The notes under the pieces: generated by a model
Seen by the model: the letters and a program-made list of their open reading frames with translations, nothing else
Told to the model about the DNA's origin: nothing
The model's database searches: none
Assembly (NCBI GenBank): GCA_052034405.1
Contig: JBPOIO010000020.1
Span: 9,699-73,698 of the forward strand
Direction: 5' to 3'
Length of the DNA stretch: 64,000 bases
Origin: Candidatus Magasanikiibacteriota bacterium
GTDB taxonomy: Bacteria; Patescibacteriota; Patescibacteriia; Magasanikbacterales; UBA922
Shown: positions 31,002 to 61,137 of the stretch, piece by piece
Position numbering within the stretch: the stretch's first letter is position 1
Layout: every line of letters begins with the position of its first letter
Program-made: the position numbers and the translations under genes

Positions 31002-31006
31002 AAAAT

Positions 31007-32898: not shown

Positions 32899-32906
32899 TT
32901 TGAGCT

Positions 32907-34007: not shown

Positions 34008-34019
34008 TACATTTATACT

Positions 34020-35111: not shown

Positions 35112-35116
35112 ATATT

Positions 35117-36616: not shown

Positions 36617-36628
36617 AAAAATTTGAGA

Positions 36629-37612: not shown

Positions 37613-39077
37613 ATATCTTGTTATTGGGGCAGCCTGTTTTTTTCTTTCAGGGGTGGTCCATGCTGAACCATTTAATTTTGTCGTTAATAGAGGTTTGTGG
37701 ATGTCCAAAAAAGACGTCTTTGCCGGTTCTTCGGTCAAAATTTATGGAGTTGTGGTGAATAATAATTTTTCTACACTTTCTGCTACGGTAGATTTTTTGA
37801 GTAATGGGCAAAGTATTGGTAAAACTCGAGTAGAAAATATAAAATTTGAAGAGGCTCGGCAGGTGTATGTAGAGTATCTTCTTCCTGCTGGAAGTCTCAA
37901 AATGGAAATCAAGCTTGAATCAATTACTGCCAAAGATGCAGAGGGTAAAAATGTGGTTATTTCGGCCGATGAACTTGCTGCTTTTGGTGCAACACAAGAT
38001 TTTTTTATTGATATTGATACAGACAAAGATAAAATCGGAGATACAAAAGACCCTGACGATGACAACGATACCCTCAGTGATGAAGAAGAAAAAGTACGGG
38101 GGACAGATTCTCTTAAAGTGGATAGTGATGCAGATGGTATAAAAGACGCCGAAGAAGTAAAAAAAGGTTTGGATCCAACTCGTGCGGATAGTGATGGAGA
38201 TGGTACAAAAGATGCTCAGGATCTTTTTCCTCTTGATAAAAATGAATGGGCAGATGCAGACAAAGATGCTATTGGGGATAATGCTGATCCAGATGATGAT
38301 AATGATGGAGTACCCGATCAAGATGAAAAAACACAGGGGACAGATCCTGTAAAATCTGATACTGATGGCGATACACTGCTTGAAGGCGAAGAGCAAAAAT
38401 ATGGAACAAATCCATTAAAAAAAGATACAGATGGTGATGGAGTTGATGATAATTTTGAAATTGCCATGAAAACAGATCCTCTCAAAGCGGATACAGATAG
38501 TGATGGCCTTTCGGATAAAGAAGAAGCGACTCAAAAAACGAGTCCGACTATTGCAGATACAGATAGTGATGGGGTTCTCGATGGAACAGAAGTCGCAGCA
38601 AAGAGTAATCCACTTAAAGTTGATAGTGATGGAGACGGGGTACTCGATAAAGACGATGCTTTTCCAAATGATTCCAGTGAATCCAAAGATAGTGATGGAG
38701 ACGAAATTGCTGACAACAAAGACCAGGATGACGATAATGATGGCTTGACAGATGAGGAAGAATTGGGGTACCATACGGACCCATTGAAGGCAGATAGCGA
38801 CGGGGATGGCGTGAGTGATCACGAAGAGGTTCGTAAGGGCACAGACCCCAATAAAGCCGAGACTTCTTGGCTGAGTGTATTCAAAAAAACAGCTTCTGAA
38901 AGTAATTCGAGCAAACAGACTCCAGACTGGGTTTCTAGTTCTCCTTGGAAAAATATTGTTCAGTTTGGAGCTTTGATATCGTTTCTTGCCTTTGTATTTT
39001 TTGCTCTAAAATATCGTTTTAAAAAGAAAGCAATTCAAAAAAATAAAAATTATGACATTCTCAAAGACGACAAATAA
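37581..39077 (+). CDS. Secreted, C-terminally anchored protein with thrombospondin type 3-like calcium-binding repeats
   Basis: Signal peptide. About 15 D-x-D-x-DG-x-x-D-x-x-E repeats. C-terminal TM helix plus basic stop-transfer. Confidence 0.65.
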   Translation: MKIQSFSKITKYLVIGAACFFLSGVVHAEPFNFVVNRGLWMSKKDVFAGSSVKIYGVVVNNNFSTLSATVDFLSNGQSIGKTRVENIKFEEARQVYVEYLLPAGSLKMEIKLESITAKDAEGKNVVISADELAAFGATQDFFIDIDTDKDKIGDTKDPDDDNDTLSDEEEKVRGTDSLKVDSDADGIKDAEEVKKGLDPTRADSDGDGTKDAQDLFPLDKNEWADADKDAIGDNADPDDDNDGVPDQDEKTQGTDPVKSDTDGDTLLEGEEQKYGTNPLKKDTDGDGVDDNFEIAMKTDPLKADTDSDGLSDKEEATQKTSPTIADTDSDGVLDGTEVAAKSNPLKVDSDGDGVLDKDDAFPNDSSESKDSDGDEIADNKDQDDDNDGLTDEEELGYHTDPLKADSDGDGVSDHEEVRKGTDPNKAETSWLSVFKKTASESNSSKQTPDWVSSSPWKNIVQFGALISFLAFVFFALKYRFKKKAIQKNKNYDILKDDK

Positions 39078-39843
39078 AATAGTATTTTTGGCTTTCGTAC
39101 TGAGTATCACTTTTTTCTTTGCACCTGTAGTTCATGCAGATGTTTTGGACTCTGATCATGATGGTTTGACCGATACAGAAGAAACAACACTCTATGCAAC
39201 TGATCCAAATAATGCTGATACCGATGATGATAGTTTTCTTGACGGTCGTGAAGTAGACAGTGGTTATTCTCCACACTTTGGAAAAGGTGCTCGTTTGAGT
39301 CAAACAGATTTTGATGCGGATGGTTTGAACGATGCTATGGAAATTCGTTTTCATACAAACCTTGGCTCCAAAGATAGCGACGGCGATGCTCATCTTGATC
39401 TTGATGAAGTTCTTTTTGGTTATGATCCAAGCTCTGCCTCCACAGACATTCGACTTTCTCGTGCGGTTATTGTAGATCGTAGTACTCAAAGATTGTCTTA
39501 TCAAGTAAGTGGAATAGAAATGAAAAATTTTCCAGTTTCTACTGGAAACCCATTTACTCCAACTCCAGAAGGAGAATTTTCTGTACAAAGAAAACGTGAG
39601 TATGTGGATTATATTGGTGTAGGGTATAGTTACCCTCATACTCGTTGGAATTTGCAATTTTTGCCACATTACTACCTTCATACAGCTTATTGGCATAATG
39701 ATTTTGGTGTTCGTACTCGTTCCCATGGTTGTGTCAATATGCGTGAGGCTGATGCTGGATTTTTGTTCAAATACCTTGAAGTTGGGGTTCCTGTGACCGT
39801 TACTGGAACAACTCCAATTCACCTTTATGTAGCCTCAAAATAA
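39052..39843 (+). CDS. L,D-transpeptidase (YkuD) with N-terminal TSP3-like repeats
   Basis: Signal peptide, DSDHDGLTD/DTDDDSFLDG repeats, YkuD catalytic SHGCVNM. Confidence 0.75.
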   Translation: MTFSKTTNKIVFLAFVLSITFFFAPVVHADVLDSDHDGLTDTEETTLYATDPNNADTDDDSFLDGREVDSGYSPHFGKGARLSQTDFDADGLNDAMEIRFHTNLGSKDSDGDAHLDLDEVLFGYDPSSASTDIRLSRAVIVDRSTQRLSYQVSGIEMKNFPVSTGNPFTPTPEGEFSVQRKREYVDYIGVGYSYPHTRWNLQFLPHYYLHTAYWHNDFGVRTRSHGCVNMREADAGFLFKYLEVGVPVTVTGTTPIHLYVASK

Positions 39844-39852
39844 TGAATCTCT

Positions 39853-41229
39853 ATGAATACTACTCCCTCAATGGATAATCTCATTTCTTTGTGTAAGCGT
39901 CGTGGTTTTGTGTTTCCAGGAAGTGAAATTTATGGTGGTTTGGCCAACTCTTGGGACTACGGTCCACTTGGTGCTCAGCTCAAAAAAAATATCAAAGACT
40001 TTTGGTGGAAAACTTTTGTACAAACTCGTGAAGATATGGTGCCTTTTGATGGGGCAATTTTGATGAACCCACGGGTTTGGGAAGCGTCTGGACATGTGGC
40101 AACGTTTCATGATCCATTGGTAGAAGATGTTGTGACACACAAACGCTATCGTGCAGATCATTTGCTTGAAGATGCTGGAATCAATCCTACAGGAATGACT
40201 ATTGAACAAATGGGGCAGGCTATTGTGGAAAACAAATTAAAAAGTCCAGAAGGAAATCAATTGTCTGCGCCTCGTCAGTTCAATATGATGTTTCAAACAA
40301 CGATTGGTCCTGTGCAAACAGACAGTGATAACATTGTGTATTTGCGTCCAGAAACAGCACAGGCAATGTTTGTAAACTTCAAACAAGTTGCAAGTACAAC
40401 ACGCAAGCGTTTGCCTTTTGGTATTGCTCAGATTGGAAAGGCTTTTCGAAACGAAATTACTCCTGGAAATTTTATTTTCCGAACTTTGGAATTTGAACAA
40501 ATGGAAATTGAGTACTTTCTTGAAGAAAAAGATTGGCAAGAAGTTTTTGAACAGTGGACCAAAGATATTGAAAAATTTGCCCTCGGTCTTGGTATTGATA
40601 CTACAAAAATTCATCATTTTGAAGTGCCTGCAGAAGATCGTGCCCACTACTCCAAACGTACTATTGATTTCATGTTTGATTTTCCTTTTGGTCAAAAAGA
40701 ACTGTGGGGAATGGCTTACCGCACCGATTATGATTTGAATGCACACCAAACACATTCAAAACAATCTCTTGAATATATTGACCCAGATGACAATAAACGC
40801 AAATTTACTCCACATGTGATCGAACCTTCTTTTGGTGTTGATCGTACATTGTTGGCGCTTTTATCAAGTGTGTACAAAGAAGAAATTGTGGCCGAAGGGG
40901 ATACTCGTATTGTGCTTCAATTTTTGCCACATATGGCTCCATACCAAGTAGCCGTACTTCCTCTTATGAAAAAAGACGGTATGAGTGAACGTGCCAAAGA
41001 AATTTATCGCGAATTGCTCAAAGATTTTCGTGTTGACTATGACGAAGCAGGAAGTCTTGGAAAACGCTATCGTCGTGAAGATGAAATTGGTACACCATAT
41101 TGTGTTACGATTGACTACGAGACATTTGAAGATAACGCTGTAACCGTTCGTGATCGTGATACTATGCAGCAAGAACGTATTGCTGTGGCAGAACTCAAAA
41201 ATTATTTAGCACAAAAGATGATTTTTTAA
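39853..41229 (+). CDS. glyQS: Glycyl-tRNA synthetase (alpha2 type)
   Basis: Class II motifs; FVFPGSEIYGGLANSWDYGPLG. Confidence 0.9.
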   Translation: MNTTPSMDNLISLCKRRGFVFPGSEIYGGLANSWDYGPLGAQLKKNIKDFWWKTFVQTREDMVPFDGAILMNPRVWEASGHVATFHDPLVEDVVTHKRYRADHLLEDAGINPTGMTIEQMGQAIVENKLKSPEGNQLSAPRQFNMMFQTTIGPVQTDSDNIVYLRPETAQAMFVNFKQVASTTRKRLPFGIAQIGKAFRNEITPGNFIFRTLEFEQMEIEYFLEEKDWQEVFEQWTKDIEKFALGLGIDTTKIHHFEVPAEDRAHYSKRTIDFMFDFPFGQKELWGMAYRTDYDLNAHQTHSKQSLEYIDPDDNKRKFTPHVIEPSFGVDRTLLALLSSVYKEEIVAEGDTRIVLQFLPHMAPYQVAVLPLMKKDGMSERAKEIYRELLKDFRVDYDEAGSLGKRYRREDEIGTPYCVTIDYETFEDNAVTVRDRDTMQQERIAVAELKNYLAQKMIF

Positions 41230-41231
41230 TT

Positions 41232-42491
41232 ATGTTTGAAAAATATCAACTCAAAAATAAAATGAATGTGCTTTTGGTGCCTCAGACTGATACTCGTAGT
41301 GCCACATTTATGGTGATGTATCCTGTTGGTTCTCGTTACGAAACAGAATCTTTGCGTGGAGCGTCACATTTTGTAGAGCACCTCATGTTCAAAGGGACAC
41401 ACAAACGCAAAAGTACACTTATTTTGACTCGTGAGATTGATAGACTTGGGGCAGAGTACAATGCTTTTACGGGCAAAGAATATACTGCTTACTATATCAA
41501 AGTAGATGCGAATTATTCTCGTATTGCGCTTGATATTCTCTCAGACATGCTCAACAATTCAAGATTTGATCCAAAAGAAATGGAACGTGAAAAAAATGTG
41601 ATTGTCGAAGAACTTCGTATGTATCGCGACAATCCTCTTATGAATATTGATAATTTGTTTGAGGAGCTCATGTTCCAAGGTTCTACATTGGGGAGAGATA
41701 TTGGGGGAACAGATAAACATGTACTCAATTTTGACCGTGATGAAGTCATGGCCTATCACGATAAATATTATAGTCCAAGAAATGCAACATTGGTTGTTGC
41801 TGGGAAAATTGATGATACCCTCAAGCGTTCTATCGAACAGTATTTTGATGTATATGAAAGTGGTGGTAGTTCAAAGCAAAACTTTAAGCCAAGTAATTTT
41901 GGACCAAATGCACACAAAGACCGTTTGATCATTCAAGAAAAAGTAACGGATCAAGTACAGCTTATGCTTGGTTGGCCAGCATTTGCTCGCGGCGATGATC
42001 GAAATTACGCCCTTGGAATACTCAATACTATTTTGGGTGGATCTATGTGTTCACGTTTGTTTATCGAGGTTCGTGAACGTCGAGGTTTGGCATATAGTAT
42101 ACGCAGTGGAAACGAGACATTTCGTGATACAGGATATAGCTCTGTTCGTGTGGGTCTTGATCCAAAAAATCTCAACAAAGCTATTGCGCTTATCAAATCC
42201 GAGATCATGAAGATGCTCGCAAAAGGTGTGACAGACAAAGAACTTCGTGATGCAAAAACACATATTCGTGGATCACTGACTTTGTCACTTGAAGATTCAG
42301 AAACACAGGCAAACTGGTTTGCTCGTAAATCTGTGTTGTATGACGAAATCTCAACTCCAGAAGAAGAACTCCAAAAATTGGAAGCAGTCACCAAAGAAGA
42401 TATTAAAAAAGTTGCAAAATTGATTTTTGATTGGAATAAAACCCGTGTTGCGATTATCGGACCAGTGAAAAAAGACCAAGTCGTATTTTAA
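41232..42491 (+). CDS. M16-family zinc peptidase
   Basis: Inverted zincin motif HFVEHLMFKGT. Confidence 0.8.
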   Translation: MFEKYQLKNKMNVLLVPQTDTRSATFMVMYPVGSRYETESLRGASHFVEHLMFKGTHKRKSTLILTREIDRLGAEYNAFTGKEYTAYYIKVDANYSRIALDILSDMLNNSRFDPKEMEREKNVIVEELRMYRDNPLMNIDNLFEELMFQGSTLGRDIGGTDKHVLNFDRDEVMAYHDKYYSPRNATLVVAGKIDDTLKRSIEQYFDVYESGGSSKQNFKPSNFGPNAHKDRLIIQEKVTDQVQLMLGWPAFARGDDRNYALGILNTILGGSMCSRLFIEVRERRGLAYSIRSGNETFRDTGYSSVRVGLDPKNLNKAIALIKSEIMKMLAKGVTDKELRDAKTHIRGSLTLSLEDSETQANWFARKSVLYDEISTPEEELQKLEAVTKEDIKKVAKLIFDWNKTRVAIIGPVKKDQVVF

Positions 42492-42506
42492 TCTTCATTC
42501 CCTTAT

Positions 42507-43244
42507 ATGAAATACATCTTTGGAAACTGGAAAATGTACTTGAATGTTGAAGACTCGCTTTTGTTGTCACAAGAACTTTCGAGAATAGCATTTTCAGAAG
42601 CAAAAGTTTGTATTTTCCCCAATGCGCTTGTATTTCGCGCTGTACAGGATATTTTGTCTCATAATAAAAACATACAGCTTGGGGCCCAAAACGTCGCTTG
42701 GACGCCTCAGGGAGCCTATACGGGGGCTCTCTCTGCAGAGCTCTACAAACAGTGTCAGGCAGAGTATGCTATTGTTGGTCACAGTGAACGACGATATATT
42801 TTTGGAGAGAGCAATAGTGATGTTCGAAAAAAAGTCGAAGCTTGTTTGGCCGCTCAAATCACTCCTGTAGTGTGTATTGGAGAAACACGTGAAGACAAAG
42901 AATCAAATACCCGAAGTATTCGTTTGAAAGAACAAATACAAGCAGTCTTTGAAAATCTTGATTGTAGCCCGGATCAAAATATTTTTATTGCCTACGAACC
43001 TGTTTGGGCTATTTCTCGAGGAGCTTCGGCCGATCCCTGTCTTCCTGCGGATGTAGAAGATGTGCATGCTTTTATTGTAACAGAAATAAAACACTATACA
43101 GAAAAAACAGTTCCAATTTTGTATGGTGGCAGTGTCAATGCAGAAAACATTTCTTCGTATCTTGATATCCCCAATGTCGATGGTGTCTTGGTAGGAAACG
43201 CATCTACCAAAAAAGAATTTTGGCAATTTGTATCACATTTATAA
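42507..43244 (+). CDS. tpiA: Triosephosphate isomerase
   Basis: FGNWKMY, AYEPVWAI, YGGSVN. Confidence 0.9.
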   Translation: MKYIFGNWKMYLNVEDSLLLSQELSRIAFSEAKVCIFPNALVFRAVQDILSHNKNIQLGAQNVAWTPQGAYTGALSAELYKQCQAEYAIVGHSERRYIFGESNSDVRKKVEACLAAQITPVVCIGETREDKESNTRSIRLKEQIQAVFENLDCSPDQNIFIAYEPVWAISRGASADPCLPADVEDVHAFIVTEIKHYTEKTVPILYGGSVNAENISSYLDIPNVDGVLVGNASTKKEFWQFVSHL

Positions 43245-43247
43245 TCT

Positions 43248-44147
43248 ATGTACGCTCTTTTTCCTTTACTTCTTATCTTTTGTTCTTTTGCCGCGATTAT
43301 TTTTTTGATTGTAAAAAAATTTCCACAACTAACATTGCTTGATGTAGAAAGTATTCCAGAAGTAAAAGAAGAAAAGAAAAAAGATGAGTTTTTGAAAAAA
43401 CGTGCAGAAAAAAAGATCCAAGAAAAAAAAGAAAAAAAGAAAGTGAAGTGGCAACCACTTTTGGATTTTTCAGAGCATCTCCAATCTGGATTTCGCAGTT
43501 TTGTGGGGACTATTGAAAAAAAAGTTTTTCATATTAACTTTGCAAAAAATCGTGAAAAAAAATTGGAAGAGGGAATTACCCCAGAACAAGAGATTGCACT
43601 TCTTGTACACGAAGCTGAAAATGCTCGACATGCTGGAAATTTGGATCAGGCTGAAAAGAAATATATTGAAGTTATTCGTTTGGATCCAAAATATATTGAT
43701 GCCTATCGGGGTCTTGCCGAGGTATATATGGGACTTGGTCAAAAGAAAGAAGCCGAAGAAACCTATCAATTTTTGCATCATTTGCTTCCAAATGACGATA
43801 TGGTTTGTATACGTCTTGCAGAGTTGGCAGAAGAAGAGGGGAAAACGACCACAGCGATTCAATATTATGAGAAATCTTTGCTTCTTAATGACTCTATTGC
43901 GAGCCGTTTTGCGCACCTAGCGGGCCTTTTGGAGGGGGAAAAACAGTACCCAGCTGCACTCGAGGCCATGGAGCAATCTGTGGAGCTAGAACCCCAAAAT
44001 CCAAAATATCTTGACAATCTTATAGAACTTGCTATAATTGTGAGCGATAAAGAACTTGCCGAAGAGACCTACCAAAAGCTTCGCCTGGTAAACCCAGACA
44101 ATCACAAGCTTCCTCTCTTCAAAGACAAGATTCAGGCCCTAGGATAG
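43248..44147 (+). CDS. Membrane-anchored TPR-repeat protein
   Basis: N-terminal TM helix, lysine/glutamate-rich linker, and several TPR units. Confidence 0.55.
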   Translation: MYALFPLLLIFCSFAAIIFLIVKKFPQLTLLDVESIPEVKEEKKKDEFLKKRAEKKIQEKKEKKKVKWQPLLDFSEHLQSGFRSFVGTIEKKVFHINFAKNREKKLEEGITPEQEIALLVHEAENARHAGNLDQAEKKYIEVIRLDPKYIDAYRGLAEVYMGLGQKKEAEETYQFLHHLLPNDDMVCIRLAELAEEEGKTTTAIQYYEKSLLLNDSIASRFAHLAGLLEGEKQYPAALEAMEQSVELEPQNPKYLDNLIELAIIVSDKELAEETYQKLRLVNPDNHKLPLFKDKIQALG

Positions 44148-44164
44148 GGGAAAATATCCACCAT

Positions 44165-44239
44165 GCCGAGATAGCTCAGCGGTAGAGCAGCTGTTTTGTA
44201 AACAGCGGGTCGCAGGTTCAAATCCTGTTCTCGGCTCCA
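44165..44239 (+). tRNA. tRNA-Thr (anticodon UGU), CCA encoded
   Basis: Manual cloverleaf: acceptor GCCGAGA/TCTCGGC, anticodon arm GCTGT-TTTGTAA-ACAGC, T-loop TTCAAAT. Confidence 0.85.
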
Positions 44240-44300: not shown

Positions 44301-44912
44301 ATGATTACTCTTCAAAAAGAACAATTACCTCAGATTTTAGATCTTTACAATCAAGGACAGAGTGTTCGTGAAATTTCTGAAAAGTTCGATGTTTCTATTG
44401 ATGCAATGTTTTATTTTTTTCGTAAATATAAAATAGTAAGACGAAATGCCTCTGATAGAAATAAAGCTTTCTTTGAAAGAAAACAATTAAGTTTTTGTAT
44501 AAAAGAAAAACTTTCTTTGGAAGAAGAAAAATTAAAAGTTGCAGGTATAATGTTGTATTGGGGAGAAGGTTCGCAGTGGTCAGGAGAGAAGATTGTTGAT
44601 TTTGCAAATAGCAAACCAGAAATGATAAAAATATTTCTTCAATTTTTGCGAGATGTTTGTGGCATTGATGAAAGTAAGCTGCGTGTTTATGTATATGCTT
44701 ATGAAGATCAAGATCTGAAAAAGATAATGAATTTTTGGTCAAAGTTAACTCACATTCCATTAAAAAATTTTTCTAAGCCTTATATTCGAAAAGATTTTAA
44801 GGTTGAGAAGAGTGGAAAAATGGAATATGGACTTGTTCATATTCGATACTACGATAAAAAACTATTGCTTTTGATAAAGCAGTGGATTCAACAGTACGCT
44901 CAACAATATTGA
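44301..44912 (+). CDS. LAGLIDADG-like homing endonuclease candidate with an N-terminal HTH
   Basis: VAGIMLYWGEGSQ resembles a degenerate single LAGLIDADG motif. N-terminal helix-turn-helix. Lies immediately 5' of the intron-containing tRNA-Tyr; its stop is 1 nt from the tRNA 5' end. Confidence 0.4.
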   Translation: MITLQKEQLPQILDLYNQGQSVREISEKFDVSIDAMFYFFRKYKIVRRNASDRNKAFFERKQLSFCIKEKLSLEEEKLKVAGIMLYWGEGSQWSGEKIVDFANSKPEMIKIFLQFLRDVCGIDESKLRVYVYAYEDQDLKKIMNFWSKLTHIPLKNFSKPYIRKDFKVEKSGKMEYGLVHIRYYDKKLLLLIKQWIQQYAQQY

Positions 44913-46180: not shown

Positions 46181-46256
46181 GCTGCCATAGCTCAGTTGGT
46201 AGAGCGCGGCCATGGTAAGGCCGAGGTCTCCAGTTCAATCCTGGATGGCAGCTCCA
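46181..46256 (+). tRNA. tRNA-Thr (anticodon GGU), CCA encoded
   Basis: Cloverleaf: acceptor GCTGCCA/TGGCAGC, anticodon arm CGGCC-ATGGTAA-GGCCG. Confidence 0.85.
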
Positions 46257-46260
46257 AAAT

Positions 46261-46287
46261 GAAAACCGCTCATTCAAGCGGTTTTTT
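46261..46287 (+). terminator. Rho-independent terminator; first copy of a direct repeat
   Basis: AAAACCGCT-CATTCA-AGCGGTTTTTT. Confidence 0.6.
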
Positions 46288-46337
46288 CATATATTATACG
46301 TTAAAATAGCATAAATGTTATACATATTAACGTATAA

Positions 46338-46366
46338 TTGACAAAAACATGTTAATATGATATAAT
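46338..46366 (+). promoter_or_regulatory. Consensus sigma70 promoter TTGACA-17-TATAAT for fic, flanked by an inverted repeat TATACGTTAA/TTAACGTATA
   Basis: Perfect hexamers. 10-bp IR arms at 46297-46306 and 46328-46337. Confidence 0.6.
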
Positions 46367-46396
46367 TTAAGCAGATTTATATTATACTCTATTTCT

Positions 46397-47269
46397 ATGA
46401 ATAAAATCAGCAAAGATCGAATTCAAGACCTCAAAGAACAATATGACCGTTTACGCATAGGTAAACAGGCTCTTTTGAAGCTTATTGATGAGTCTGAGAT
46501 AGCAGAAAATGTGTACAATTCCAATGCTATTGAAAATTCTACTTTGACACTCAAAGAAACCGAAAAGATTCTTCTTGAAATGGAAGTGTCACGGGATGTA
46601 AGTTTGCGTGAAGTTTTTGAAGCAAAAAATCTTGCTCGCGTTGTTGAATATATACGAGAAAAATCTGCAAATACTGAACTCGACAAAGAAGTGATCATGC
46701 TTTTACACAAAATGCTTATCAGCAATATCGATGACGATATTGCAGGAAGATTTCGCAAAAGCGGAGAGTATGTGCGAGTCGGTACACATATCGCCCCAGC
46801 GCCAGAACAAGTAGAAGGATTTATTGAAAGAGCACTGATTGAATACTCAAAAGATTTGGAAACATTTTTTTCAGACAAAGTAGCTCGTTTTCATTTGCGT
46901 TTCGAACACATACACCCTTTCTGTGATGGAAATGGAAGAATTGGACGAGTGCTTATAAATTATCAACTTCAACGTCTTGGTTTTCCATCTATTATTATTC
47001 GTGATAAAGAAAAACAAGTGTATTATCAAGCATTTCGAGATTTTGACGATAAAAATGTAATGAAAAGCATGGAACGAATTTTGGCTTTGTCTATTATGGA
47101 GTCTTTGCATAAAAGAATTGCGTATCTCAAAGGAGAAACTATTATCACTTTGAGTGAATATGCAAAAAATCAAGAAAAGTCTATTCATACATTGTTGAAT
47201 GCTGCTCGTCGACAAACAATTCCTGCTTTTCGAGAAAAAGGCGTTTGGAAAATTGGGGTTGAAGTATAA
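46397..47269 (+). CDS. fic: Fic-family protein (AMPylation/Doc fold)
   Basis: Canonical HPFCDGNGRIGR active-site motif. Confidence 0.8.
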   Translation: MNKISKDRIQDLKEQYDRLRIGKQALLKLIDESEIAENVYNSNAIENSTLTLKETEKILLEMEVSRDVSLREVFEAKNLARVVEYIREKSANTELDKEVIMLLHKMLISNIDDDIAGRFRKSGEYVRVGTHIAPAPEQVEGFIERALIEYSKDLETFFSDKVARFHLRFEHIHPFCDGNGRIGRVLINYQLQRLGFPSIIIRDKEKQVYYQAFRDFDDKNVMKSMERILALSIMESLHKRIAYLKGETIITLSEYAKNQEKSIHTLLNAARRQTIPAFREKGVWKIGVEV

Positions 47270-47308
47270 GTGCAGTTCTAACGTCACAGGTTATTCGGCT
47301 CACAAATT

Positions 47309-47336
47309 AAAACCGCTTATTTCAGCGGTTTTTTTA
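47309..47336 (+). terminator. Rho-independent terminator; second copy of the direct repeat
   Basis: AAAACCGCT-TATTTC-AGCGGTTTTTTT. Stem identical to the hairpin at 46261. Confidence 0.6.
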
Positions 47337-47422
47337 TGCTCAAGTCGCAGTTTTATACTTATTCACAATGTAACTTGTTTATATAATTATAAAATGTAGA
47401 CTATGGAAGTAACTTATATTGT

Positions 47423-47938
47423 ATGAACTTATATAAACAAAGCACATATGAAACTTGTTTGGCTGTAAGTCTTTTACATATATTAGATATTGTTCCAAAT
47501 AGAAAAAAAGAAATTGAGATTTGGCGGAAAGGATGGAATTTTAACTTTTTGGAAGGTCAACTCAATGCGGTGGTTGGTCAATATTCTGTTTCATTAAATG
47601 TTTTTGTGGGTAGTAAAATCTATGGAGAGTATCTTTGTTCCCATGTTTATTCGAATATTCATATTATCCATCAAAAAATTGATAGTAAATTTATTTTTTG
47701 TTTAGTAAAAGAAAAACCTATAATAGTGTATCTTGATAACTATTTTCTTCAAAAAAAACTTCATGCCCCTCATTTTGTTGTAGTTCTTGAAAGCACTCAA
47801 AAATGTTTGAAAATTTTTGATCCATGGGATGGACGAGAAAAACTTATTTCATTGAATACTTTTCAAAAAGGTGTGAAAAGTTTAGAAACCTATCTCAAAT
47901 TTAGTCCAATAGTTATACAAAGGACTGATTTAGGGTAG
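47423..47938 (+). CDS. C39-like / papain-fold cysteine peptidase domain protein (candidate)
   Basis: QSTYETCLAVSLLHIL (Gln...Cys), HFVVVLES (His) and FDPWDG (Asp) occur in C39 order and spacing. Confidence 0.4.
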   Translation: MNLYKQSTYETCLAVSLLHILDIVPNRKKEIEIWRKGWNFNFLEGQLNAVVGQYSVSLNVFVGSKIYGEYLCSHVYSNIHIIHQKIDSKFIFCLVKEKPIIVYLDNYFLQKKLHAPHFVVVLESTQKCLKIFDPWDGREKLISLNTFQKGVKSLETYLKFSPIVIQRTDLG

Positions 47939-47998
47939 ATAGACAAAATATATTCAATAAGTTACACTTATCTCATAAACTGAAATCTTTCACTATTT

Positions 47999-49060
47999 AT
48001 GAATACCGATGAAGTCGTTATAAAAGAGTCTTTAATTGATGGAAAAGGTATTTTTGCGTCCCGAAACTTTAAACAAGGAGAAGTGATTTTGCATTGGGAT
48101 ACTACTCAAGTTATAGATAAAAGTGAGTTAAAAAAACTTGATGAAGAAGAAAAAAAGTATATAACGCTCGTAAATGGTCAGTATACCAAAATGCAAGAAC
48201 CTGAAAAATTTGTAAATCACTCCTATAATCCCGATACTTACGTAAAAAATTTTTGTGATGTAGCTCTTCGAGATATTTCAGAAGGGGAGGAGATCACAAG
48301 TGACTATACTGATAGCTTACCTCCAAATACGGTGATACCGTGTAATTGTGGAAGTAAGCGTTGTAGAAAAGTTATTACCAATATGAAATTCTTATTACAA
48401 CAAAGTGATTTTGCCGCTATTCCATCACAAACTGAACGATTAGATGAACGGCACCAGACGAGCGAGCCAATGGAGATCGTCTGTTGTGGCCTGCCAATTC
48501 AAGTACTTAGTGGTGTATATAAAACTTCCGCAGATACGGAACTTATGGCAGACACAGTCAAAATTGAGCTTCACCAGACCTTTTTGGAAATAGGTTGTGG
48601 CACGGGTATAGTGTGTATCTCTTTGGCAAAAAAAGCTAAATCAGGAGTTGGAGTAGATATCAATAAACTTGCGGTTGAAAATAGTAAATTAAATTTTGCT
48701 CGACATAGTAGCATAAATAATGTTGAATTTTTGGAATCAAATCTTTTTGAAAATGTACAAGGACAATTTGACGTCATTATATGTAATCCACCATATAACA
48801 ACAATAATGCCAAAGATAATATAGATAAAATGTTTTGGGATGCAAAAGATGACATGAAACAACGTTTTTTCAAAGAAGTAGGGAACTATTTAAAAGAAAA
48901 TGGACGAATATATTTTGGTTGGGCCAACTTTGCAGATTTAGATCTCTATTTGCCATTTCGTTTAGCAGAAGAAAATGGATTTGAAGTGGTAGATGTTCAA
49001 AGTCGTCCTTCGAAGAGTAAAAATTGTTTATTTTATGTTTTTGAGTTTAGAAGAAAGTAA
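47999..49060 (+). CDS. SET domain fused to an NPPY-type class I methyltransferase (PrmC/HemK-like)
   Basis: N-terminal GKGIFA...NHSYNPDT...EEITSDY plus post-SET CNCGSKRCR. C-terminal LEIGCGTGI (motif I) and ICNPPY (motif IV). Confidence 0.7.
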   Translation: MNTDEVVIKESLIDGKGIFASRNFKQGEVILHWDTTQVIDKSELKKLDEEEKKYITLVNGQYTKMQEPEKFVNHSYNPDTYVKNFCDVALRDISEGEEITSDYTDSLPPNTVIPCNCGSKRCRKVITNMKFLLQQSDFAAIPSQTERLDERHQTSEPMEIVCCGLPIQVLSGVYKTSADTELMADTVKIELHQTFLEIGCGTGIVCISLAKKAKSGVGVDINKLAVENSKLNFARHSSINNVEFLESNLFENVQGQFDVIICNPPYNNNNAKDNIDKMFWDAKDDMKQRFFKEVGNYLKENGRIYFGWANFADLDLYLPFRLAEENGFEVVDVQSRPSKSKNCLFYVFEFRRK

Positions 49061-49075
49061 TCATAATTTTATTTT

Positions 49076-49663
49076 ATGGACCAGCAAAGACTACAACAAA
49101 TTATAGATTTCATGCGTGTTACGGATCAAATGAAGTTGATTTATCGAACCGTCGAAATATCTACCAATGAGCGTGGAGAAAGCGACGCCGAGCATTCTTG
49201 GCACTTGGCACTTTTGCTTATGTTACTCGAAAAAGATTTGCCACAAAATATTGATAAAATTAAACTCTATAAAATGCTTGTTATGCATGATATAGTAGAG
49301 ATTTATGCGGGAGATACACCACTTTACGACGATGTTGGAAGAATGGATAAAGCCCAGCGAGAGGCCGAGGCTGCTAAAAAATTATTTTGCCAACTTCCGG
49401 GAGATCTCAAAGAAGAGTTTTTTTCTTTATTTAACGAATTTGAAGCACGGGAAACATTGGAAGCAAAAATTGCAAAAGCGTTTGATAAAATTCATCCTCT
49501 TATTCAAAACTTGTGTTCGAACGGGACAGATTACAGAAATTTTCATGCTACTTATGACGATGAAAAACAGAGAATCGAAAAATATGTCGATTTTGATCCT
49601 ATTTTGAAGCAGATTTCGGACTTTCTTCTTGATGATGCAAAAAAATGTGGGTATATACAATAA
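49076..49663 (+). CDS. HD-domain phosphohydrolase (YfbR-like 5'-nucleotidase family)
   Basis: SWHLALL...MHDIVEIYAGD. Confidence 0.6.
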   Translation: MDQQRLQQIIDFMRVTDQMKLIYRTVEISTNERGESDAEHSWHLALLLMLLEKDLPQNIDKIKLYKMLVMHDIVEIYAGDTPLYDDVGRMDKAQREAEAAKKLFCQLPGDLKEEFFSLFNEFEARETLEAKIAKAFDKIHPLIQNLCSNGTDYRNFHATYDDEKQRIEKYVDFDPILKQISDFLLDDAKKCGYIQ

Positions 49664-49670
49664 AAATTTT

Positions 49671-50018
49671 ATGCAACATCAAATGAAACTTTTACCAGGA
49701 CCTTTTGAAAAAATAAAATTTGGATTCAAAATTATTGAAATTCGTCTTTTTGATGAAAAACGACAACAAATTCAGGTGGGTGATACGATTGAATTTTCAT
49801 TGTTACCTGACCTTACTGAAAAGATATTTGTTGAAGTCACTGGCCTTTTACGATATGCTTCTTTTCGTGATCTTATTGTTGGGTGTGGAATGGAGCCTTT
49901 TGGGTATTTAAGGGAATATCCGCAGGAAGATTTTTTACAAAGTATATATACGATTTATTCAAAAGAAGATGAAGAAAAATATGGGGTACTCGGTATTCAA
50001 ATAAAATTGTGTAATTAA
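49671..50018 (+). CDS. ASCH (PUA-like) domain protein
   Basis: Small beta-barrel pattern LLPGPFEKIKFGFKIIEIRLFD...VGDTIEF. Start taken at the ATG after the upstream stop. Confidence 0.4.
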   Translation: MQHQMKLLPGPFEKIKFGFKIIEIRLFDEKRQQIQVGDTIEFSLLPDLTEKIFVEVTGLLRYASFRDLIVGCGMEPFGYLREYPQEDFLQSIYTIYSKEDEEKYGVLGIQIKLCN

Positions 50019-50027
50019 ACCGAATAT

Positions 50028-50441
50028 ATGGAAAACAGACCAAAGGTAGGAGTGGGTGTTGTTATTATGAAAGATGGGAAAGTACTTTTAGGGAAGAGAA
50101 AAAATGCGCATGGGGAAGGTTCGTGGTGTTTTGCAGGAGGGCATTTGGAATATGGAGAATCATGGGAAGAGTGTGCAAGAAGAGAAGCTCTTGAAGAAAC
50201 TGGACTTACCATCAAAAATGTCCGTTTTGGTACTATCACCAATGATATTTTTGAAAAAGAACAAAAGCACTATATCACTCTTTATATGCTCTGTGAGCCA
50301 GATGTCGGTCAGGTGACTGTAATGGAACCAGAAAAATGCGAAGGGTGGGAGTGGTTCGACTGGGACAATTTACCTCGACCTCTTTTTATCCCGATTGAAA
50401 ATCTTTTGTCTATGGGATATAACCCATTTCAGTCAAAGTAA
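50028..50441 (+). CDS. NUDIX hydrolase
   Basis: Nudix box GGHLEYGESWEECARREALEETGL. Confidence 0.8.
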   Translation: MENRPKVGVGVVIMKDGKVLLGKRKNAHGEGSWCFAGGHLEYGESWEECARREALEETGLTIKNVRFGTITNDIFEKEQKHYITLYMLCEPDVGQVTVMEPEKCEGWEWFDWDNLPRPLFIPIENLLSMGYNPFQSK

Positions 50442-50496
50442 AATATACGTAGTTAAATATGTTAATTATTGTATTTAAAGATATTGTTCAATCACT

Positions 50497-51252
50497 ATGA
50501 AAATAGTTTCTTTAAACACCTGGGGAGGGCGAGCGAGTCTTGAAAATTTGTTACAATTTTTATGTTCTTATAGTGATGTGGATATTTTTTGTTTACAAGA
50601 AGTATGGGGTGGGGGCGAAGATACAGTAAGAAAGCTTTTTTCAGATGAAAATATAAATGAAGTAGAATGGAATCTTTTACAAAAAATAAAAATGGCGTTA
50701 CCAGGTTATAATGCTTATTTTCGTTGTAATTTTTTTGATTTTTTTGGGTTGGCTATATTTGTGAAAAAAGAAATTCATATACTAGAAGAAGGAGATGCCT
50801 TTGTTTATAACGAAAAGGGATATTTTTCAAAAGAAGAATTTGGCGATCATGCTCGCAATATTCAATATATCTGTATTGATACGAATGAAGGTCCTCGGAC
50901 TATTATTAATTTTCATGGTCTTTGGGATGCAATGGGAAAAGGAGATACAAAGAATCGTATATTACAATCTGAAAAAATTTTACAATTTGTAAAAACAATA
51001 CAGAATCCATTTGTTTTATGTGGAGATTTTAACTTGCTTCCAGATACACAGAGTATTCAAATTTTTGAGCAATATGGTCTTAGGAATTTAATTCGAGAGT
51101 ACAAAATAAATTCTACACGAACGAGTTTCTATACCAAGTCAGTGAAATTCGCCGATTATGCCTTTGTGAGTGAAGGTATTCAGGTTGTAAATTTTTTGGT
51201 ACTTCGAGATGAAGTTTCAGATCACTCTCCACTGCTTTTAGAATTTGAGTAA
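50497..51252 (+). CDS. Endonuclease/exonuclease/phosphatase (EEP) family protein
   Basis: LNTWGG...CLQEV...SDHSPL motifs. Confidence 0.7.
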   Translation: MKIVSLNTWGGRASLENLLQFLCSYSDVDIFCLQEVWGGGEDTVRKLFSDENINEVEWNLLQKIKMALPGYNAYFRCNFFDFFGLAIFVKKEIHILEEGDAFVYNEKGYFSKEEFGDHARNIQYICIDTNEGPRTIINFHGLWDAMGKGDTKNRILQSEKILQFVKTIQNPFVLCGDFNLLPDTQSIQIFEQYGLRNLIREYKINSTRTSFYTKSVKFADYAFVSEGIQVVNFLVLRDEVSDHSPLLLEFE

Positions 51253-51286
51253 ATATTTTAGAATAGTATATATACAATTTATATTT

Positions 51287-51715
51287 ATGGATAGCAATTA
51301 CAAAAAAGTACATTTTGGTATTTATGGTATCGCCCAAAAAGACGGAAAACTTTTGATGATCAAAAAATCTCGTGGTCCATATATTGGACTTCTCGATCTT
51401 CCAGGTGGAAGAATGGAAGAATGTGAGATGGTAGAAGAAACATTGATTCGTGAGTTGCAAGAAGAGACGTCGGCAACTGTCAAAAGCATGCAATTTTTTG
51501 ACTTTGCAGAATATAGGTGTGTATACGAAGAAAATGGCGAAACAAAATATTTTCACCATATTGGACTTTATTTTTTGCTAGATATTGAGGTTGAAAATTT
51601 GAAAGAAGGGGCTGATGGTCATGATTCAAATGGGGCCGAGTGGATTCCACTTCCACTTCACGAAAATATGATTGCTCCAATTTTGAAAAAACCTTTGAAA
51701 ATGTATTTAAAATAA
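51287..51715 (+). CDS. NUDIX hydrolase
   Basis: Nudix box GGRMEECEMVEETLIRELQEETS. Confidence 0.75.
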   Translation: MDSNYKKVHFGIYGIAQKDGKLLMIKKSRGPYIGLLDLPGGRMEECEMVEETLIRELQEETSATVKSMQFFDFAEYRCVYEENGETKYFHHIGLYFLLDIEVENLKEGADGHDSNGAEWIPLPLHENMIAPILKKPLKMYLK

Positions 51716-51724
51716 ATTTTTGTT

Positions 51725-52339
51725 ATGCCAGAACAAGAACAGTTACAAAATCCGGAGATCAAAGAAAAATATAATGGAAGTTATGGTATCGTTATAAAAC
51801 CAGATATCTCTACAGGAGAACAGTCTCTTCGACTCGCTAATGAATTAACTCCAAACGCCGAGTATAAAGTGACGGTTCCGCATCTCACACTGTATCATGG
51901 AAATATTTCTAATCTTCCACTCGACAAAGTTCAAGAAATTCTGAGGTCAACACAAGAAATGCTTCGCGATAACATTCACGATCTTCGAGATATTCAAGTC
52001 TTTGGTGGAAAATTTGTGTTCTGGGATGTTATCAAAAACAAGAGTATGCGGCAGGCACATGATATTGCCCTTGGACTTTCGAAATTTTTAGATAGGGAAA
52101 AACTTGCTCGTGCACTTCAGGAGGGTTTAAATCTTACTGAAGAACAAAGACTCAACATGGAACAATTTGGTCATCCATTGGTAGGTGATTTATATCGTCC
52201 TCATATAACTTTATCCTATGATTCTCAAGGAATAGTTTTGCCTGAAGATGTTCAATCATGTGATTGGCGCATGAATGTAAACAATGTTCATTTTGCTGAA
52301 ATTGGAAAATACGGAAGCGTCGCTAAAATTATTTTATAG
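51725..52339 (+). CDS. 2H phosphoesterase (LigT / 2'-5' RNA ligase-like)
   Basis: Two H-x-T/S-x motifs: PHLTLY and PHITLS. Confidence 0.6.
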   Translation: MPEQEQLQNPEIKEKYNGSYGIVIKPDISTGEQSLRLANELTPNAEYKVTVPHLTLYHGNISNLPLDKVQEILRSTQEMLRDNIHDLRDIQVFGGKFVFWDVIKNKSMRQAHDIALGLSKFLDREKLARALQEGLNLTEEQRLNMEQFGHPLVGDLYRPHITLSYDSQGIVLPEDVQSCDWRMNVNNVHFAEIGKYGSVAKIIL

Positions 52340-52365
52340 GAGTGTAAGGAATAGTATAAAGGCCT

Positions 52366-52947
52366 ATGTTGAAATTATTTAAAATTATAAAATATATACT
52401 TTTTACAGGTATTCTTGTTTGTGTTATTACTGCCACAGTGATTATTTGGGATGGGCTTCATGATAATATTCACCAAAATGATGCAATTGTAATATTGGGT
52501 AATAAAGTAGAATTGACAGGTAAACCTTCACCACGATTGTTGAGTCGATTGGAAAAAGGTTTTGAGTTGTATCAAAATAAAACAGCCCCACTCATCATAG
52601 TTACAGGTGGAACTGGGGTGGAAGGATTTGATGAAGCAAAAGTGATGAAACAATATCTTGTTGACAAGGGTGTTCCTGAAGATGTTGTATTTGTAGATTC
52701 TCAAGGAGTCGATACTTTTTCAAGTGCAAAAAATATACAGAAAATTGTGAAAGAGAGAAATATAAAGTCTGTATTGGTAGTAAGTAACTATTATCATATT
52801 TCTCGTACGGTTTTTGCTTTTAAAGAAAATAATATTCTTGAAGTATATTCGGCTCATGCCAATTTTTTTGAATGGAGAGATATGTTTTCAATACCTCGAG
52901 AAGTGCTTGTTTTTTATTTTTATATATGGAAACAAATAAACTCATAA
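52366..52947 (+). CDS. DUF218 (YdcF/ElyC/SanA-like) protein
   Basis: N-terminal TM helix; ILGNKV...IIVTGGTG...FVDSQGVDTF. Confidence 0.55.
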   Translation: MLKLFKIIKYILFTGILVCVITATVIIWDGLHDNIHQNDAIVILGNKVELTGKPSPRLLSRLEKGFELYQNKTAPLIIVTGGTGVEGFDEAKVMKQYLVDKGVPEDVVFVDSQGVDTFSSAKNIQKIVKERNIKSVLVVSNYYHISRTVFAFKENNILEVYSAHANFFEWRDMFSIPREVLVFYFYIWKQINS

Positions 52948-53645
52948 ATTTAAAATTTCGAAAATATTCTCTTTTAGAATTTTGGATATATTATGTTCTC
53001 TATACTCCTGCAATTTATGCAGCTGTATTGTTTTTTCTTTTTTTACTTTTGATTCTTGTTGATTTTGTTTTTGATTCTATTTTTAAATTTTCACTTATCC
53101 CATTTTTTGTATCAAAATATGCACAATCGTTGATTCCCAATAATGAATTTATTTTGGTTATATTTGGAGTTTTTCTTCTTTCTATTTTTATTGGACTCTT
53201 TGCAAAATTTTTCAAATCTTATAGAGCCGAGTGTGTGATTGATGAAAGCGCAAAAACTGTTTCTGTTCAGATAGATCAAAAACCATACAGTGATATAAAA
53301 TTTGTAAAAACTTTTTGGTATTTGCCCTTCGTATTATTCCGTACTCTTGGACGTGGTTTACGATTTTCGGTGTATGCTCTGTGGCTTCGCTATGAGACAA
53401 GGCAAGGAGAAAAAGGATATCTTCTTTTAGAAGATGGATCATTTCTTGATATAAAATTAAATTCTCGATATCAAAAAATTGTTGAGATGGAAGATTATGT
53501 GCATGTTATTTCGCTGTTTTTCAATTTGGGTTTTTTGACCGTTCCTCTCCATGCAAAATTTTTGCGTAGAAAAAAGTTTCTTTCTTGGTTTGTTTGGATT
53601 GTGTTGGGTATTTGTTTTGTTGTTTTGATCGTAACGAAGTTTTAG
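52926..53645 (+). CDS. Hypothetical membrane protein
   Basis: Multiple hydrophobic helices. Start uncertain (52872 or 52926); overlaps the previous gene. Confidence 0.35.
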   Translation: METNKLINLKFRKYSLLEFWIYYVLYTPAIYAAVLFFLFLLLILVDFVFDSIFKFSLIPFFVSKYAQSLIPNNEFILVIFGVFLLSIFIGLFAKFFKSYRAECVIDESAKTVSVQIDQKPYSDIKFVKTFWYLPFVLFRTLGRGLRFSVYALWLRYETRQGEKGYLLLEDGSFLDIKLNSRYQKIVEMEDYVHVISLFFNLGFLTVPLHAKFLRRKKFLSWFVWIVLGICFVVLIVTKF

Positions 53646-53670
53646 TTTTTATAGCGTATTCCATCTATTT

Positions 53671-54072
53671 TTGAAATATATGAGTGAAAGAAAAATGAGA
53701 GATGCATTTGGTATGGATATATTTTATCGCCCTCTTGAAAGAAATCGTGAGGAAATTATAAGAGCTATTGAAATTGCAAATACATCAGGATTTTCTATTC
53801 AAGTAGATTTTATTCTTTCGCCAGAAGTTCGTCCTGCATTACTCCAGATTTTGGCATATACAAATGAAAGGATTCTTTCTCTGACTCAGGTAGGAAAAAA
53901 TCTTTTAAAAAATATAGAGAATATTTCAGATGGTGATACAATTTCTTTAGAAATTTCCCCAAAGTTTGGTGATAAAAGTTTATTTCCGTATAAAAATAAG
54001 ATAGACTCTCTCGTAAAGATTTTGTTATCGTCAAGTCGATTAGAACTTAAAAAATCAAAACAGTACAAGTGA
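53671..54072 (+). CDS. Hypothetical protein
   Basis: 133-aa ORF with no recognisable motif, good coding density. Confidence 0.35.
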   Translation: MKYMSERKMRDAFGMDIFYRPLERNREEIIRAIEIANTSGFSIQVDFILSPEVRPALLQILAYTNERILSLTQVGKNLLKNIENISDGDTISLEISPKFGDKSLFPYKNKIDSLVKILLSSSRLELKKSKQYK

Positions 54073-61041: not shown

Positions 61042-61112
61042 GCCTCCTTGGTTCAGTGGTAGAACGACGGTATCGTAAACCGTATGCGCCAGTTCGATTC
61101 TGGCAGGAGGCT
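61042..61112 (+). tRNA. tRNA-Thr (anticodon CGU), CCA not encoded
   Basis: Cloverleaf: acceptor GCCTCCT/AGGAGGC, anticodon arm ACGGT-ATCGTAA-ACCGT, T-arm GCCAG-TTCGATT-CTGGC. Confidence 0.75.
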
Positions 61113-61137
61113 CAAGAATATGTTATACTTATAACAT

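Follow-up and report, generated by a model that had tools for sequence, protein, structure and literature searches.

A run of seven small genes was found at positions 49076-52947 of a 64,000-nt stretch of contig JBPOIO010000020.1; the whole of this stretch is called the window below. The genes encode, in order, an HD phosphohydrolase, an ASCH protein, a Nudix hydrolase, an endonuclease/exonuclease/phosphatase (EEP) enzyme, a second Nudix hydrolase, a 2H phosphoesterase and a DUF218 protein. The original prediction had seen in this array a possible nucleotide-signal-degrading or RNA-repair/immunity island anchored at a tRNA-Thr gene. Its domain calls were right, five of them lying above the Pfam threshold and the ASCH and 2H calls being reached through motifs, homologues and a structural model, and the nucleotide-directed theme it read from the array agrees with the families and motifs identified here. 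The genes were found to turn over singly between close relatives, and their linkage was not conserved at greater distance.

All seven open reading frames (ORFs) were present on the + strand in a mechanical ORF list, and the predicted spacers of 7-55 nt held once two start codons had been corrected. With ATG 49671 and ATG 51287 taken as the true starts of the ASCH and second Nudix genes, 15 nt separate the upstream SET-methyltransferase gene from the HD gene, followed by spacers of 7, 9, 55, 34, 9 and 26 nt through the DUF218 gene. An alternative genetic code was ruled out as every ORF was intact under table 11. Tight co-directional packing is the default for this genome and is nothing special to the array. 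In a simple greedy gene call, 62 of 71 window genes lay on the + strand, the gap was 60 nt or less in 42 of 64 same-strand neighbour pairs, and a comparable tight run of 19 genes occupies 26034-44147. The functional clustering, unlike the packing, exceeds chance. The six hydrolase genes, HD through 2H, are contiguous among the ~71 window genes, and a post hoc permutation for a run of six gave p ~5e-6 with 8 genes assumed in the class and 1e-4 with 10. In the 25 of 39 families that were listed for the window, the hydrolase-like genes elsewhere were one HIT and one MBL gene, and no other Nudix, HD_3, EEP or 2H gene was seen outside the array. The rest of the window holds genes for ribosomal proteins, RpoA, sugar-nucleotide and glycosyltransferase functions, AlaRS, MutS and ComEC.

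Predicted enzymes of the array

The first six proteins are hydrolases of the soluble cytoplasmic kind; their catalytic motifs are intact, and none has a hydrophobic segment. The HD gene (49076-49663, +) encodes a soluble protein of 195 amino acids (aa) of the HD_3 / YfbR-HDDC2 type. It matched Pfam HD_3 (3e-44, 151 bits against a threshold of 22.5) and the YfbR-like family (1e-16, 61 bits against 25.9), carries the HD metal ligands H40 and H71-D72, and matched 3kh1 (4.5e-33) and HDDC2 (3e-18) in the PDB, all of which place it in the HD_3 / YfbR-like group. It is likely a (deoxy)nucleoside 5'-monophosphatase, as E. coli YfbR is a 5'-nucleotidase specific for deoxynucleoside monophosphates (dNMPs) (PMC8475336). 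Exact orthology with YfbR is not claimed because the score against the NCBIfam 5'-deoxynucleotidase equivalog (36.6 bits) fell short of the cut-off of 122.

The ASCH gene (49671-50018, +) encodes a stand-alone protein of 115 aa. The mechanical ORF begins at TTG 49629, and ATG 49671 was judged the most likely start from the DNA and frame; the orthologue in the closest relative was likewise called at 115 aa. The Pfam ASCH score of 21.0 bits was 0.2 bits short of the threshold of 21.2. The ASCH-fold proteins PH0355/PF0455 were matched in the PDB (4e-9), the majority of 89 homologues with 40-95% identity carry PF04266, and the octapeptide GFKIIEIR fits the GxKxxExR pattern of the GKER subgroup. 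Despite the marginal Pfam score, the protein is assigned to the ASCH family by these sequence features. Proteins of the GKER type deacetylate N4-acetylcytidine (ac4C) (bioRxiv 10.64898/2026.02.27.708502), and a role in ac4C catabolism and salvage is described for YqfB and EOLA1 (PMC6972931 and a preprint). Homologues of ~60% identity occur both in the candidate phyla radiation (CPR; Uhrbacteria) and in DPANN archaea (Nanoarchaeota, Nanobdellota), a distribution suggestive of exchange of the gene between the ultra-small symbionts of both domains.

The first Nudix gene (50028-50441, +; 137 aa) carries a complete Nudix box, GHLEYGESWEECARREALEETGL. Membership of the family was taken to require the box GX5EX7REUXEEXGU together with a Pfam NUDIX score above threshold, and the protein has both (1e-25, 90.6 bits). 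Its PDB matches, spanning residues 3-135, were AtNUDX1 (5.6e-41), Rickettsia MutT (5.9e-41) and human NUDT15 (2e-35), while the match to the NCBIfam ADP-ribose diphosphatase (8e-5) lay well under the cut-off. By these comparisons it is predicted to be an NTP-sanitising enzyme of the NUDX1/NUDT15 type and not an ADP-ribose pyrophosphatase. The second Nudix gene (51287-51715, +; 142 aa, with the mechanical ORF from TTG 51245) is distantly MutT/RppH-like. It belongs to the family by its Pfam NUDIX score (8e-16, 58.7 bits), and its best PDB matches were MutT (9e-8) and BsRppH (3.7e-6). In its box, GRMEECEMVEETLIRELQEE, the RE-x2-EE core is intact and S-A stands in place of the terminal G-U.

Between the two Nudix genes lies the EEP gene (50497-51252, +; 251 aa), placed in this family by Pfam Exo_endo_phos (5e-18, 66 bits against 24.5) and by a catalytic set of N7, E35, D177, N179, D242 and H243 that was invariant in 25 sequences. 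There were 2662 homologues; the best 120 were 51-92% identical, nearly all ~251 aa long, and those with names were all Patescibacteria/CPR. The subfamily thus appears, from these sequences, to be conserved across the CPR with varied neighbours. A single-sequence search of the PDB gave no match, and a profile matched ExoIII only in short terminal stretches (2e-5). Identity as Exonuclease III or an Xth AP endonuclease is not supported by these short end matches or by the equivalog scores (TIGR00195, 33 bits against 182; TIGR00633, 31 bits against 99).

The 2H gene (51725-52339, +; 204 aa) encodes a divergent protein, with all 2H-type Pfam scores (DUF1045, 2_5_RNA_ligase2, Acb1) below threshold. 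Its two H-x-T-x motifs are HLTL (residue 53) and HITL (residue 160). When 1.84 billion representatives were searched in full with HMMER, the protein proved to belong to a family of 227 cluster representatives of ~200 aa. In an alignment of 80 of its sequences H53, H160 and T162 were near-invariant, and 58 of the 80 matched PF13563 (2_5_RNA_ligase2), 43 LigT_PEase and 7 Acb1. PDB searches with the sequence and with a two-sequence profile found nothing meaningful. An AlphaFold (AF2) model built from the 80-sequence alignment had a pLDDT of 94.2, and nearly all of its top Foldseek matches in the PDB were 2H enzymes, led by the Arabidopsis cyclic phosphodiesterase (CPDase) acting on ADP-ribose 1'',2''-cyclic phosphate (Appr>p) (2e-5) and followed by LigT, drCPDase, YjcG and AKAP18. 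The motif pair and the modelled fold place the protein in the 2H superfamily. Identity as an Acb1 anti-CBASS enzyme was rejected, the Pfam score being 18 bits against 27 and Acb1 structures ranking 36th or lower.

The DUF218 gene (52366-52947, +; 193 aa) encodes a membrane-anchored protein of the YdcF/SanA/ElyC type (Pfam DUF218 6.5e-26, 91.3 bits against 27.6; weak ElyC/SanA matches in NCBIfam). It has an N-terminal hydrophobic segment and is followed by a gene for a polytopic membrane protein, so it is probably an envelope protein outside the hydrolase theme. To our knowledge, hydrolase activity is not established for the DUF218 family. The description of the array as small hydrolases is therefore kept for six of the seven genes, and for the DUF218 protein the label is unsupported.

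Gene turnover beside tRNA-Thr

Close relatives of the window were recovered through a helicase anchor, exact-protein look-ups and tblastn/blastn searches, the DEAD-box helicase anchor yielding two close relatives only, one of which ended at the anchor. Exact look-ups with the EEP and 2H proteins of the window itself returned no recorded contig. The nearest (L115), with 96.3% DNA identity to the window, retains the HD, ASCH, Nudix, EEP and Nudix genes, and the HD, first Nudix and second Nudix proteins are 98%, 100% and 99% identical respectively. Homology to the window starts 8 nt ahead of the HD start codon, and upstream of it two unrelated small ORFs stand where the window has the SET-methyltransferase gene.

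Four further contigs (L111-L114) share ~80% DNA identity with the window and 97-100% with each other in shared DNA, their EEP proteins being identical. All four retain the Nudix, EEP and Nudix genes (82% identity for the first Nudix protein and 86% for the second), and this core is common to the window and L115; an unrelated inserted methyltransferase gene interrupts the order, between the first Nudix gene and the EEP gene. The 2H gene is absent from all four. No intact ASCH gene was present, as L112 carries a pseudogene (457-801) with one in-frame stop that splits it into ORFs of 54 and 42 aa, the gene was undetectable in L111 and L114, and its place lies past the contig end in L113. A 41-aa ORF occupies the ASCH position in L111 (3142-3267) and in L114. 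As far as L111 and L112 were recovered, they had no HD homologue, and the contigs of L113 and L114 stop short of the region. To the left of the first Nudix gene, L111 and L112 carry PNPOx/C39 genes, or a HIT gene and the ASCH pseudogene, instead of HD. A 743-nt cassette (d257) is present or absent among the four as a clean indel, and L113 (661-1122, 2418-2756) has a methyltransferase fragment and a 609-nt deletion inside the DUF218 gene, whose protein is 80% identical to that of the window in L111, L112 and L114.

A sixth contig (L001), with flanks 82-84% identical to the window, carries a tRNA-end-like repeat, a 166-aa gene, a 2H gene (68%), a 146-aa gene, an inositol monophosphatase (IMPase) gene and the conserved right flank. 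The HD, ASCH, EEP, DUF218 and both Nudix genes were not in the recovered contig, which begins at the repeat. The 2H gene, found among the recovered relatives in this genome and L001 only, is the least conserved member of the array. The replacement cassettes in the relatives were again small stand-alone enzymes (HIT, PNPOx, SAM methyltransferase, IMPase), and the units of exchange were single genes of 0.4-1 kb. Single genes are thus gained, lost and decaying between strains at this segment.

The nearest public metagenome-assembled genomes (MAGs), from which L002/L112 (CAZQRI010000013.1) and L003 (CAZXIF010000078.1) derive, are titled 'uncultured Gammaproteobacteria bacterium'. This title may be a mislabel, as the gene content and the EEP homologues point to Patescibacteria/CPR.

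The variable segment is ~8 kb long and extends from a tRNA-Thr(GGU) gene (46181-46256, +), its left border, to a convergent junction at ~54.07 kb. Its GC content (46257-54072) is 0.327, compared to 0.383 in the remaining window. A 40-nt direct repeat corresponding to the 3' end of the tRNA and a hairpin terminator has copies at 46251-46290 and 47298-47337; these are 83% identical and the only ones in the window, where chance would give none, and the second also resembles the T-arm/acceptor half of the tRNA. The pair encloses only a Fic gene (46397-47269, +; Pfam 1e-19), which has its own perfect TTGACA-17-TATAAT promoter (46338-46366) and a terminator at 47309-47332, and the array starts 1.7 kb past the second copy. 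The Fic gene resembles a cassette of one gene that entered at the 3' end of tRNA-Thr(GGU). The ORFs scanned in 44-56 kb included no integrase, transposase or other mobility gene. Of the features of tRNA-associated islands, the segment shows the border tRNA, the 3'-end repeat, low GC and strain variation. The island proposed in the original prediction stands as regards the low GC, the border tRNA and the cassette variation, but the repeat brackets Fic alone and not the array. No tRNA gene was found on any of the relatives' contigs, so the anchoring at tRNA-Thr is read from the window alone.

Between the second repeat copy and the array lie a C39-like gene (47423-47938, +) and a gene for a fusion of SET and HemK/MTS-type methyltransferase domains (47999-49060, +), both assigned by Pfam and both possibly co-transcribed with the array. 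A pattern-match scan predicted no + strand terminator between 47333 and 53008, so the genes from C39 through DUF218 may share one transcript, and the seven array genes are probably expressed together. At the Rfam gathering threshold the only matches were three tRNAs, with no riboswitch or other known RNA within the array. The placement of the SET-methyltransferase gene varies, being after C39 in the window and ahead of PNPOx and C39 in L111 (727-1911, 394 aa), where the order is SET-methyltransferase, PNPOx, repeat and C39.

Further features of the window were recorded. Three tRNA-Thr genes lie on the same strand within 17 kb, at 44165-44239 (TGT), 46181-46256 (GGT) and 61042-61113 (CGT), and a perfect sigma-70-like promoter (44011-44038) precedes the first. 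An ORF of 203 aa without Pfam match (44301-44912) lies between tRNA-Thr(TGT) and a peroxiredoxin gene. Its homologues (30-35%) occur 364 nt upstream of EEP in one contig group and 3 kb off in another (contigs L076/L079/L080 and L052). The string MLYWGEGSQ in this ORF recalls, on our impression only, a LAGLIDADG motif. A VirD4/TrwB-like type IV coupling protein (TrwB_AAD_bind, TraG-D_C) is encoded at 3765-5477 beside FtsW and a large TPR protein.

Gene neighbourhoods in distant relatives

The linkage of the array genes was followed outward from the EEP gene. At 66-68% EEP identity (L024-L027, L116, L117), the gene is flanked by a cold-shock gene and DnaE, and the rest of the array is missing; only L116 has a Nudix gene, encoded on the opposite strand ~6 kb off. 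Two cases at 57-59% identity have a Nudix gene, which in one is convergent with EEP and in the other lies on the other strand at a distance of 2.2 kb. The DnaE gene beside EEP contains an intein with a LAGLIDADG endonuclease in L024 (9506-14299, 1597 aa) and none in L116 (1656-5141, 1161 aa).

A metagenome scan with the 25-sequence EEP alignment contributed 80 loci. In 87 EEP loci (613 kb) searched by tblastn with the window proteins, HD, ASCH and 2H homologues occurred in none, DUF218 in 2 and Nudix relatives in 4. The 117 immediate EEP neighbours from 75 non-redundant CPR loci fell into 113 Pfam families, the commonest being GIY-YIG (3) and NUDIX (2), and were no different from a control of 140 genes at least 5 positions from EEP. 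A Nudix HMM gave 3 matches within 1 kb of EEP, where ~0.9 were expected, and 3 in the other 379 kb, a difference that is not significant; 72 of the 75 EEP genes had no adjacent Nudix gene.

Homologues of the ASCH gene at 69%, 62% and 51% identity occurred in three differing contexts. The first (L118) has Nudix, three small ORFs, ASCH, alpha/beta hydrolase, GDSL esterase and methyltransferase genes; the second (L121) has no Nudix gene; the third (L122, Uhrbacteria) has two Nudix genes, DHQ synthase, Gmad2, ASCH and a GNAT-ASCH fusion. None of these Nudix genes was orthologous to either Nudix gene of the array, and the recurrence of Nudix genes near ASCH and EEP is no more than a hint of loose functional affinity. 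L118 shares source samples with the contigs carrying the 68% EEP gene, and if these come from one organism the EEP and ASCH genes are unlinked there. The fusion in L122 joins a GNAT acetyltransferase to ASCH in a 452-aa protein beside the ASCH homologue (655-1824, 6001-7808), and the two are a possible writer/eraser pair for ac4C. An AcrVA2-like protein is encoded 4 kb upstream in L122.

Families linked across distant genomes, as expected of a conserved operon, were not seen. The original prediction had looked to conserved gene neighbourhoods across CPR genomes for its functional link and named dispersal without conserved linkage as the outcome that would tell against it; in the relatives this is largely what was found.

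Interpretation and comparison with known systems

We conclude, with moderate confidence, that the array has built up in this lineage from enzymes that each work alone in nucleotide clean-up and salvage, within a low-GC variable segment adjacent to tRNA-Thr. By their closest characterised relatives, the first Nudix enzyme would convert non-canonical (d)NTPs to (d)NMPs and the HD enzyme, as a relative of YfbR/HDDC2, would convert dNMPs to nucleosides. The ASCH protein would strip the N4-acetyl group from cytidine as do those of the GKER type, and the second, MutT/RppH-like Nudix enzyme may be a further member of the clean-up set. The EEP enzyme would cleave phosphoesters at nucleic-acid ends or AP sites in the manner of ExoIII, and the 2H enzyme may open 2',3'-cyclic phosphates or 2'-5' ends from RNA breakdown. 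Small self-sufficient enzymes would be over-represented at such a segment because only genes that work alone survive gain and loss one gene at a time.

Several points weigh against this conclusion. The substrates are ones that we infer, as is the theme of sanitation and salvage in an organism that depends on nucleotides it scavenges. The contiguity of the hydrolases is far above the random-order expectation of the permutation, and together with the lack of a predicted terminator it leaves room for a lineage-specific operon. There is a mild, non-significant enrichment of Nudix genes right beside EEP, and in two of the three independent ASCH contexts (L118 and L122) a Nudix gene shares the strand of ASCH at a distance of at most 2.6 kb. 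Most relatives are short metagenomic contigs, so a gene counted as absent may sit elsewhere in the genome. The assignment to the CPR, though the most likely one, rests on the named EEP homologues, the short AlaRS and the general gene content, and the nearest MAGs are labelled Gammaproteobacteria.

The strongest of the alternatives, though an improbable one, is a true lineage-specific operon encoding a sequential salvage pathway that is co-transcribed to yield usable nucleosides. In such a pathway the 2H enzyme would open 2',3'-cyclic NMPs, the EEP and HD enzymes would remove phosphates, the Nudix enzymes would trim (d)NTPs or NDP-X and the ASCH protein would de-acetylate cytidine; these steps share the low probability of the pathway as a whole. 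The contiguous genes with their short spacers and no intervening predicted terminator, the non-random functional clustering, the intact active sites of six cytoplasmic enzymes, the Nudix-EEP-Nudix core kept in the window, L115 and L111-L114, and the recurrence of Nudix near ASCH in L118 and L122 are all consistent with it. However, the terminator scan is a pattern match, the 2H, HD and ASCH genes are lost singly in near-identical strains with no compensation seen, an unrelated methyltransferase gene interrupts the order, and there is no linkage at 66-68% identity nor across the 75 CPR loci.

A more speculative extension of the accumulation reading, and one we regard as unlikely, is that the segment is a flexible sanitation locus of CPR episymbionts, in which a recombination hotspot at tRNA-Thr swaps single-gene clean-up cassettes between strains. 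The cassettes in question would, on this same tentative footing, be of the Nudix, HD, HIT, ASCH, 2H, IMPase, PNPOx and methyltransferase kinds. If this were true, the swaps would match the modified or damaged nucleotides that a given strain scavenges from host or environment, and diversifying selection would act on the gene content there, as it does in defence islands, but for metabolic hygiene and not immunity.

It is doubtful that the array is instead a defence or counter-defence island, with hydrolases that degrade immune signals or modified nucleotides alongside the upstream Fic and methyltransferase genes; the signals proposed, with equally little probability, would be cyclic oligonucleotides, ADP-ribose derivatives or 2'-5' oligoadenylates. 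The strain-level turnover and the tRNA-side location do resemble defence islands, and the 2H protein shares its fold with Acb1 and viral 2',5'-phosphodiesterases. It is closer, however, to cellular CPDase, LigT and YjcG. In PADLOC-DB v2, the Fic gene matched PDC-S04 (2e-35) and SoFic (8e-24) and the methyltransferase half of the SET fusion matched mad2 (4e-26), candidate models whose genes sit outside the array. Both Nudix genes matched PDC-S07 at 47.7 and 40.2 bits, below their own generic Pfam NUDIX scores, and the HD, ASCH, EEP, 2H and DUF218 genes had no model match; the array thus did not correspond to a known defence system. No cyclase, TIR, SIR2, STAND, CRISPR or effector nuclease was found within ~10 kb of the array, and the EEP gene is conserved across the CPR in a housekeeping-like manner. 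Scans of 2.9 million viral contigs with the EEP alignment, a two-sequence 2H alignment, ASCH and HD, which reach close relatives only, gave no close relatives of these four genes. The lack of hydrophobic segments in the six hydrolases argues against action on a host. Two other proposals were also set aside: a prophage remnant, by the lack of phage-type genes and of close relatives in the viral-contig scans, and secreted effectors, by the lack of any signal-peptide or membrane segment in the six hydrolases.

A chain of 2H CPDase, phosphatase and Nudix enzyme would resemble the disposal of a by-product of tRNA splicing. A module of RNA repair or Appr>p processing on this pattern, with a Nudix ADP-ribose pyrophosphatase and an RNA-binding ASCH protein, is very improbable: the Arabidopsis Appr>p CPDase as top Foldseek match of the 2H model, the two Nudix genes flanking the region and the PUA-like nucleic-acid-binding fold of ASCH agree with it, but Pfam scans of ORFs between 39 and 63 kb gave no RNA ligase (RtcB/Rnl), Tpt1/KptA, Macro or polynucleotide kinase, the first Nudix protein is of the NUDX1/NUDT15 type (E ~6e-41) with only 8e-5 for the ADP-ribose diphosphatase, and the 2H gene is the least conserved, absent from L111-L114 and with other neighbours in L001. 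For the coordinated system for RNA repair, ADP-ribose or Appr>p turnover or immune signalling that was originally proposed, neither the partners in the scanned surroundings nor conserved linkage was found, and the data do not support a multi-gene system for RNA repair or immunity that is conserved.

If the accumulation reading is true, the array is a cautionary case: tight same-strand packing in CPR genomes is alone no indicator of an operon, and accretion at a variable site can bring together domains (Nudix, 2H, HD, ASCH and EEP) whose combination is suggestive. At strain resolution, the segment records how single-gene cassettes turn over beside a tRNA gene of an uncultivated, ultra-small bacterium. 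It also suggests that a changeable set of pool-sanitising enzymes may be kept by organisms that depend on nucleotide salvage, and it highlights two uncharacterised families, the divergent 2H proteins and the CPR-wide 251-aa EEP enzymes, which keep over 50% identity across many CPR lineages and have no solved relative.

Compared to known systems, the array shares the Nudix, 2H and HD domain vocabulary with the RNA-repair and NAD/ADP-ribose conflict systems known from comparative genomics (for example PMC9503650). The RNA ligase, Tpt1, Macro, ADP-ribosyltransferase and sensor components that define such systems were not found here, and the linkage is unconserved. With tRNA-adjacent islands and hypervariable regions the variable segment has in common the tRNA-Thr gene, the 3'-end repeat, low GC, presence and absence between strains and pseudogenes, and it differs from a large element in having single-gene units and no mobility gene among the scanned ORFs. 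The 2H protein shares the pair of H-x-T-x motifs and the modelled 2H fold with LigT, YjcG and the plant CPDase (Foldseek probability 1.00, TM-score 0.5-0.6). It is 13-16% identical to the solved structures and below all Pfam 2H thresholds, and its family, unlike these three, is without a characterised member. In sequence and/or motif the first Nudix, HD and ASCH proteins match the house-cleaning enzymes MutT/NUDT15/NUDX1, YfbR/HDDC2 and the YqfB/EOLA1-type ASCH amidohydrolases, which are likewise small, soluble, single-domain proteins that act alone. In model organisms the genes for such enzymes are scattered, whereas here those of six predicted hydrolases lie side by side in one variable segment.

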